A stretch of DNA of 64,000 bases, taken from positions 7,417 through 71,416 of the forward strand of contig CAVFFP010000005.1 in the NCBI GenBank assembly GCA_963621825.1. The letters run 5' to 3'. Below are positions 58,440 through 58,469 of this stretch, in pieces. Each line of letters starts with the position of its first letter. Position 1 is the stretch's first letter. A program made the translations under genes and the position numbers. This stretch comes from a bacterium. Its GTDB lineage: Bacteria > Bacillota_I > Bacilli_A > RFN20 > CAG-288. The notes under the pieces were generated by a model. It saw only the letters and a list, made by a program, of their open reading frames with translations. It searched no databases and had not been told where the DNA came from.

Positions 58440-58469
58440 ATTATATGCGGGGGGGGGTCTAAAAATCAA
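58440..58469 (-). promoter_or_regulatory. Candidate sigma-A promoter whose 18 nt spacer contains a C9 (plus-strand G9) homopolymer
   Basis: The minus strand reads TTGATT (58464-58469), then TTTAGACCCCCCCCCGCA, then TATAAT (58440-58445). It is oriented toward the XRE-TM operon. Confidence 0.5.
58449..58457. repeat. G9 homopolymeric tract
   Basis: Nine consecutive G (gcGGGGGGGGGtct) lie in an otherwise AT-rich intergenic region. Confidence 0.95.

Follow-up and report, generated by a model that had tools for sequence, protein, structure and literature searches.

The 64-kb stretch of DNA analysed here (the window) belongs to an uncultured low-GC bacterium of the animal gut. On its minus strand, an uninterrupted run of nine cytosines (C9; G9 on the plus strand; positions 58449-58457) lies between the -35 and -10 hexamers of a predicted promoter upstream of genes for a membrane-anchored XRE-family regulator, a predicted lipoprotein and a small transmembrane (TM) protein. 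We consider the chances to be a little better than even that this candidate slippage tract is a functional dial of the operon's expression, set by slippage.

The promoter and its C9 tract

The -35 hexamer TTGATT (58464-58469, minus strand) was recognised by a consensus scan and by its conservation across species, and the -10 hexamer TATAAT (58440-58445, minus strand), which overlaps a plus-strand TATTAT at 58439-58444, by the consensus scan; the 18 nt between them (58446-58463, minus strand) read TTTAGA-C9-GCA (TTTAGACCCCCCCCCGCA). An earlier note on this DNA had described the same two minus-strand hexamers with the same spacer between them, and the coordinates are confirmed here. In the promoter scan, which covered the region 54000-62000 and scored sites by hexamer matches out of 12 with shuffled sequence as a control, TTGATT-18-TATAAT was the top-ranked site with 10 matches. 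Look-alikes with 9 of 12 matches numbered 22, against 21 expected in shuffled sequence, and because they are equally frequent there, a hexamer match alone is weak evidence for a promoter.

The C9 tract is the sole run of at least six G or C in the whole 64 kb, in keeping with the earlier remark that it is the only long G/C homopolymer noticed in the window. A model of independent and identically distributed bases at the window composition predicts about 6 G/C runs of at least 6 and about 0.05 runs of at least 9; mononucleotide runs elsewhere in the window are all of 7 nt or less, the A7/T7 run at 52042-52048 being an example. Within about 150 kb of related loci, this clade's only G/C runs of at least 6 sit at the same promoter, and the few others come from the distant loci L005 and L007. 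G/C mononucleotide tracts of roughly 7-8 nt or more slip at high frequency, and C9 is longer than this; replication slippage at such a run is established for bacteria in general. Two other roles for the tract were rejected: a G-quadruplex, which a single G run cannot form, and the spacer of a plus-strand promoter (TTGATA ... AAAAAT), which would have its hexamers 20 nt apart and a poor -10.

The upstream regions of orthologous regulator genes were compared among four conspecific assemblies (the window, L008 = GCA_963617615.1, L009 from SRR13434688 and L016 from SRR12669311; 96-100% nucleotide identity) and six more distant lineages, namely the sister species of the window's species (L010/L011, 89% identity), L012 (84%), L001 (83%), L002/L027 (81%), and L017-L026 and L028, both with about 62% regulator identity. 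These four assemblies make up the conspecific sample in the searched collections, and all are assembly-level sequences from metagenomes. An exact-flank pattern scan of JGI metagenome contigs gave no further tract copies; neither did a metagenome scan with a 21-mer of the conserved leader, which returned one distant relative and one unrelated match. Exact-protein look-ups found no match for the window's regulator or its 246-aa neighbour, and for the 126-aa protein of the operon only a contig that stops short of the promoter. The regulator's relatives stem from gut metagenomes (human-type and pig) and, where named, bear the labels uncultured Mollicutes, Bacillales, Candidatus Enteromonas or Clostridiales. 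The closest GTDB-representative contig with this low-GC Firmicute-type locus, L001/L029 (CAVALL010000019.1), is labelled Alistipes onderdonkii, probably as the result of a mis-binned or mislabelled metagenome-assembled genome.

TTGATT-18-TATAAT recurs at -190 to -192 from the ATG in L001, L002/L027, L012, L010 and the window group (L008 and L016), with TTGATT-18-TATACT at -192 in L028 and TTGATT-17-CATAAT at -189 in L017. The -35 TTGATT is identical in every relative down to 61% regulator identity, and the hexamers keep their position relative to the ATG while the regulators are only 61-89% identical. Across six species representatives, column conservation is 0.89 in the -35 and 0.97 in the -10, against 0.60 in the spacer and 0.64 in the 30 nt upstream. 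Spacer sequences are unrelated between lineages (TTCAATTCCAAATCCATC; TCTTCAGTTATTTGCATC; TCCTGACTCATTTCCATC; TTCAATCAAATCATTGAC), yet six species-level lineages share a length of 18 nt; L009 (C8) and L017 have 17 nt. The conservation of both hexamers and of spacer length around a spacer of free sequence argues for a working sigma-70-type promoter, and on this comparison the TTGATT/TATAAT promoter is very probably real.

The tract is lineage-specific. It reads C9 in the window, L008 and L016, with an 18-nt spacer, and C8 in L009, with a 17-nt spacer; in the sister species (L010/L011) an interrupted CCCCCCACC stands in a spacer of 18 nt, and the tract is absent from L012, L001, L002/L027, L017 and L028. 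Sequencing runs containing the window's species include SRR13434513, SRR13434688 and SRR12669311, and the interrupted allele occurs in SRR19415658 and SRR19415667. The homopolymer is read from these alignments as a recent replacement of an ordinary spacer in one lineage, its modal length reproducing the ancestral 18-nt spacing. C9 is kept in three strains that have diverged by 2-4% from each other, which is what a preference for 18 nt would predict. The earlier note had taken 17 nt as optimal and C9 as off-optimum; since relatives without the tract conserve 18 nt, this view is given up, and C9 is taken for an ancestral state that presumably works, not for a detuned one.

Length variation is seen between two contigs that are otherwise the same. 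L009 and L008 have no substitutions in 5,528 aligned bp, and their sole differences are two 1-bp indels, 13 bp apart, in the promoter: C8 versus C9 in the tract, and an A present or absent directly 5' of the -35 (CAGATTGATT versus CAG-TTGATT; L008:3809 versus L009:513, at about window position 58470). As L008 and L009 differ there only, while each differs from the window by 120 substitutions, what variation there is between them clusters in the promoter core. One indel offsets the other in overall length, which in effect moves the -35 block by 1 nt relative to both flanks; the pair may represent a linked haplotype, compensation or assembler noise. In all, C9 is found in three and C8 in one of the four conspecific assemblies, a small assembly-level sample in which the C8 and C9 contigs possibly derive from one sample.

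Proposed slippage-driven tuning and its alternatives

We propose that one lineage acquired a hypermutable homopolymer in the spacer of a sigma-A/sigma-70-type promoter that is older and conserved, and that this promoter drives a three-gene unit encoding the membrane-anchored XRE regulator, an 840-aa DUF5050 lipoprotein and the small TM protein. Slipped-strand mispairing in replication would add or remove cytosines in a heritable and reversible manner; because the tract lies between the hexamers, each slip would shift the -35/-10 spacing by 1 nt, giving 16 nt with C7, 17 nt with C8, 18 nt with C9 and 19 nt with C10. The general optimum of this spacing is 17 nt, and 17 and 18 nt are both normally functional. 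As 18 nt is conserved in the relatives and 17 nt is the general optimum, C8 and C9 would both be expressing states of different strength, and tracts of C10 or more, or of C7 or fewer, would reduce or silence the operon. With both 17 and 18 nt active, a dial is more likely than an on/off switch. The earlier proposal of a phase-variable promoter gains an observed difference in tract length, C8 in one of four assemblies with no substitution against a C9 contig over 5.5 kb, and loses its simple ON/OFF form, graded tuning being likelier. The outcome would be population heterogeneity in the dose of a surface lipoprotein and of its cognate membrane regulator, together with that of the small TM protein.

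Several points weigh against this proposal. The searched collections hold only four conspecific assemblies, three of which agree on C9, and the one observed change (C9 to C8) may have little phenotype. One sample may have yielded both L008 and L009, in the way that the window has a 100%-identical twin in L013 (Logan), and for this reason the C8/C9 difference could be within-sample heterogeneity or homopolymer error. Mutability is not conserved beyond the species, since the sister tract CCCCCCACC is interrupted. Intergenic poly-A tracts vary in the related species L017-L026 (10 metagenomes), and homopolymer indels, being ordinary in the clade, are in themselves no sign of selection. Nor does the proposal account for the 96% conservation of the proximal leader. 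The transcription start, frequent slippage at this tract, an effect of spacing on expression and selection for variation are all inferred. The poly-A tracts of L017-L026 lie at about -100 and -215 from the ATG and read A5/A6/A8 and A6/A7, in otherwise nearly identical displayed upstream sequence; they provide a baseline of how unstable homopolymers are in the clade.

The tract could instead be incidental, a C-rich spacer that drifted to C9 and is held at nine by selection on spacing, with no switching role and with C8 as noise or a transient, mildly deleterious variant. We regard this as possible but rather unlikely. It would account for a spacer that is free in sequence among species and fixed at 18 nt, for C9 in three of the four assemblies and for the CCCCCCACC of the same total length in the sister species, and it draws on the commonness of intergenic homopolymer indels in a related species. 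However, C9 by drift is unexpected in a clade whose loci are otherwise without G/C runs of at least 6, the only two differences between otherwise identical 5.5-kb contigs fall in this very promoter, and the adjoining divergent promoter likewise has a simple sequence repeat (SSR) in its spacer. A C9 run is moreover physically mutable, so heterogeneity of spacing arises whether it is selected or not. An artefact of sequencing or assembly has next to no probability: homopolymers are error-prone and all the sequences are metagenome assemblies, yet four independent assemblies, made with different assemblers from at least three runs, contain the tract, and two sister-species contigs its homologue CCCCCCACC. 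The main start might also lie elsewhere, inside the conserved stretch of about 90 nt before the ATG, at an atypical or activator-dependent promoter that would make the tract site minor or irrelevant; we judge this very unlikely. Among species with 61-89% identical proteins, conservation of this block (58279-58370) reaches 96%, more than that of the distal promoter, and the block contains TAGAAT. Against a start there, the scan gave no other minus-strand site of at least 9/12 between the promoter and the ATG (58440-58278). TAGAAT was rejected as a proximal -10, for it reads TAGAAC in L002/L027, with loss of the essential final T, and the -35 upstream of it is poor and not conserved; a proximal start would also leave the fixed-distance conservation of the distal hexamers unexplained. 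The earlier caveat that a promoter nearer the gene might exist is weakened by these results, and not removed, given the unexplained conservation of the block.

Equally improbable in our estimation is a symmetric bidirectional promoter, in which the minus-strand TATAAT and a TG-extended plus-strand TATTAT share base pairs, and either the tract length shifts RNA polymerase between the two orientations or the G run acts as a slippage sequence of a rightward transcript toward the divergent SipW-type operon. The scan does contain a plus-strand site, TTGCTA-16-TG-TATTAT (58417-58444; 9/12 plus TG), with a predicted start at about 58451, in the G tract. The A at position 2 of its -10 (58440) is the partner of the T at position 6 of the minus-strand -10, and the T at its position 6 (58444) that of the A at position 2; the overlap of the two -10s (58440-58445 minus, 58439-58444 plus) fits the 18-bp configuration with starts placed by prediction, and a 10-nt, 90% inverted repeat flanks the tract. 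Moreover, only the tract-bearing lineages (window group and L010) combine a 16-nt spacing with TG, the tract-less relatives having 15 nt and no TG. Such symmetry is largely automatic, however, since any consensus TATAAT has a mirror xATTAT; the plus-strand site reaches only 9/12, a score as common in shuffled sequence, and the next plus-strand gene is about 350 nt off and has its own, better promoter. The 18-bp symmetric arrangement of bacterial bidirectional promoters has been described (bioRxiv 10.1101/2020.01.31.928960), and as in the symmetric promoters of Warman et al. the opposite-strand -10s overlap here with positions 2 and 6 paired and predicted starts about 18 bp apart. In its most specific form, to which we give marginally less credence again, the tract would serve both as leftward spacer and as rightward initially transcribed sequence, and slippage would re-partition RNA polymerase, coupling the XRE-TM/lipoprotein operon inversely to the rightward transcript toward the SipW-type operon as a heritable SSR direction switch. 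We know of no symmetric bidirectional promoter described with an SSR in one of its arms.

The operon, its leader and an upstream dyad

The first gene of the operon that the proposed dial would control (57454-58278, minus strand) encodes a 274-aa XRE-family regulator with an HTH_3 domain (PF01381, E = 2.6e-17, residues 7-61). The XRE helix-turn-helix (HTH) takes up residues 1-66, and about 75 E/K/P-rich residues link it to a hydrophobic C-terminal half (residues 143-274). This half is predicted to cross the membrane several times, from the three to four strongly hydrophobic segments that hydropathy marks in it. Matches to solved structures are confined to the HTH, and the 339 homologues are mostly equal in length. 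The E/K-rich linker (57926-57959) is encoded by GAA/GAG-type trinucleotide repeats; at L016:816 there is a 3-nt in-frame deletion in the linker relative to the window.

The second gene (54919-57441, minus strand) encodes the 840-aa predicted lipoprotein, with an N-terminus ...LLFTSCGK, a T/S-rich repeat linker and then a DUF5050 beta-propeller region (PF16472, E = 7.8e-16); a PDB sequence search with this protein was empty. The protein is predicted to be surface-exposed, the usual class of product of a phase-variable gene, and the pairing of lipoprotein and regulator genes is kept in all relatives. A 39-bp in-frame tandem repeat (57278-57360, minus strand; 2.1 copies, 88% matches) encodes a T/S/D-rich linker after the lipobox and is a possible site of copy-number variation. 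The third gene (54536-54916, minus strand) encodes a 126-aa single-TM protein and probably belongs to the operon, because its start abuts the lipoprotein stop with 2 nt between them; it is conserved downstream in L008, L009, L010 and L012. Beyond it come a 132-nt gap, a small ArsR-like protein and a terminator-like hairpin at 54057-54033. The three products are as the earlier note had described them, a membrane-bound XRE regulator, an 840-aa surface lipoprotein and a small TM protein, and its figure for the leader, about 160 nt, also stands.

This predicted 5' leader measures about 157 nt (58279-58435, minus strand), from a putative start near 58435, 5-8 nt past the -10, to the ATG at 58278. 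Much of its conserved block is recognisable even at 49% identity (L003). A stretch of the block, TTCTCCTT, is the complement of the Shine-Dalgarno (SD) sequence AAGGAGAA, and the minimum-free-energy fold of the leader pairs this anti-SD with the SD. A structured RNA was nevertheless rejected, as the fold energy is no better than that of shuffled sequence (z = -0.12) and the anti-SD/SD pair shows no compensatory change in L017. An Rfam search of the intergenic region gave no credible family, the sole match, STnc150, scoring 17.5 bits where the gathering score is 60. A conserved upstream open reading frame (ORF) in the leader (ATGAGTTTATTC...) was rejected as well, its frame being broken by 1-nt indels between species. 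The conserved block may be an operator, an RNA element or an atypical promoter.

On the other side of the promoter, 29 nt upstream of the -35, an inverted-repeat search found the unstranded dyad GTTCAA-N13-TTGAAC (58499-58523; conservation 0.78), which is present in all close relatives and is, from its sequence, a candidate transcription-factor site. The dyad and the conserved leader are candidate operators for the membrane XRE regulator; were the regulator to bind either of them, the tract would sit inside an autoregulatory loop.

The divergent promoter and related systems

About 270 bp from the tract promoter, in the same 525-bp intergenic region, a divergent promoter lies on the plus strand (58717-58748), with TTGACT at 58717-58722, a 20-nt spacer and TATAAT at 58743-58748, 55 nt upstream of the ATG at 58803. 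Most of an (AT)8/(TA)8 repeat (58730-58745, plus strand) falls inside its spacer. This is the longest dinucleotide repeat of the window, all others being of 4 units or less, and relatives share the arrangement of a -35 TTGACT with a TA-rich repeat immediately after it. The contigs L016, L010 and L012 end inside the (AT)n repeat, as would happen were it longer or heterogeneous in them, and because contigs break in it the repeat is evidently length-variable. We regard the (TA)8 promoter as a candidate second SSR dial.

The divergent operon (58803-63298, plus strand) encodes two proteins of about 250 aa, a SipW-like peptidase and an AAA_5 protein. The genes at 58803 and 59559 have long N-terminal anchors of SipW-dependent type, as judged from the N-termini alone; Pfam and NCBIfam gave no family for either protein, and a PDB sequence search with the 246-aa one was empty. 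The peptidase is a SipW-like (archaeal-type) signal peptidase I of 370 aa (TIGR02228, NF046067, E ~1e-12), and the last product is a 610-aa membrane protein with an AAA_5 (ATPase) domain. The operon may specify a secreted-fibre or surface-structure system.

The low-GC, Mollicutes-related Mycoplasma hyorhinis carries poly-A tracts of about 17-20 in the promoter spacers of its vlp lipoprotein genes, a multigene family. The present promoter likewise has a homopolymer in the spacer of a lipoprotein gene; unlike vlp, it is a single C9 at one locus, in an operon with a regulator. In Neisseria porA (poly-G) and opc (poly-C), according to the works listed as refs 24 and 32 of PMC5084427 (van der Ende 1995; Sarkari 1994), the length of a homopolymer in the spacer sets both the spacing and, in a graded way, transcription of a surface protein. 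As in the Neisseria meningitidis genes, a G/C homopolymer here lies between -35 and -10. The present case differs from porA/opc in its host, an uncultured AT-rich Gram-positive-type gut bacterium in which the effect on expression is a prediction, in its first gene, a membrane-anchored XRE regulator that would co-vary with the surface protein, and in the confinement of the tract to one species-level lineage.

The C9 tract and (AT)8, the most extreme SSRs of the window, are each found in the spacer of a promoter for an envelope-protein operon, and the two promoters stand back to back, in a layout that resembles the Haemophilus hif locus. In Haemophilus influenzae hifA/hifB, as cited in PMC5084427 (ref 18, van Ham 1993), TA repeats occupy the promoter spacer of a divergent intergenic region between surface-structure genes. 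The (TA)8 repeat is similarly placed in the spacer of the SipW-type operon promoter, back to back with the poly-C promoter. Unlike hif, which has one TA repeat for two overlapping promoters, there are two SSRs here for two promoters about 270 bp apart, and (TA)8 gives a 20-nt spacer. The regulator, for its part, shares with BcrR, listed among transmembrane transcription regulators in PMC10269533, an N-terminal XRE HTH and a multi-TM C-terminal half. The resemblance is one of architecture only: unlike BcrR, it has a linker of about 75 E/K/P-rich residues and its partner gene codes for a DUF5050 lipoprotein instead of an ABC transporter, and an NCBIfam scan of the regulator matched no BcrR-specific family.

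Taken against these systems, the locus is probably a further case of the established mechanism of SSR-controlled promoters, not a new mechanism. It is less ordinary in that the birth of the tract can be seen in an old promoter, in the predicted co-variation of regulator and lipoprotein, in the divergent layout with two SSRs and in a possible bidirectional geometry. Phase variation in low-GC gut commensals has mostly been studied as DNA inversion. If confirmed, the slippage dial would exemplify simple-sequence contingency regulation in an uncultured member of this group, and would show how a switch is born, the ordinary 18-nt spacer of an old promoter being replaced by a homopolymer in one lineage. 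Poly-C and (TA)n together suggest a small contingency locus with two dials over two sets of envelope proteins, the DUF5050 lipoprotein with its XRE regulator and the SipW-dependent secreted set; such a locus would matter for the phage or host immune pressure on these organisms. Tract length is a marker that can be read directly from deep metagenomes.

A few observations concern other parts of the window. Two ORFs, of 854 and 626 aa, were considered as MutS/MutL and rejected, as they encode a rhamnosidase and a GPH transporter; the remainder of the window is rich in glycoside hydrolases. A 33-bp tandem repeat (25373-25460; 2.7 copies, 80% matches) lies between an ORF ending at 25324 and one starting at 25492.

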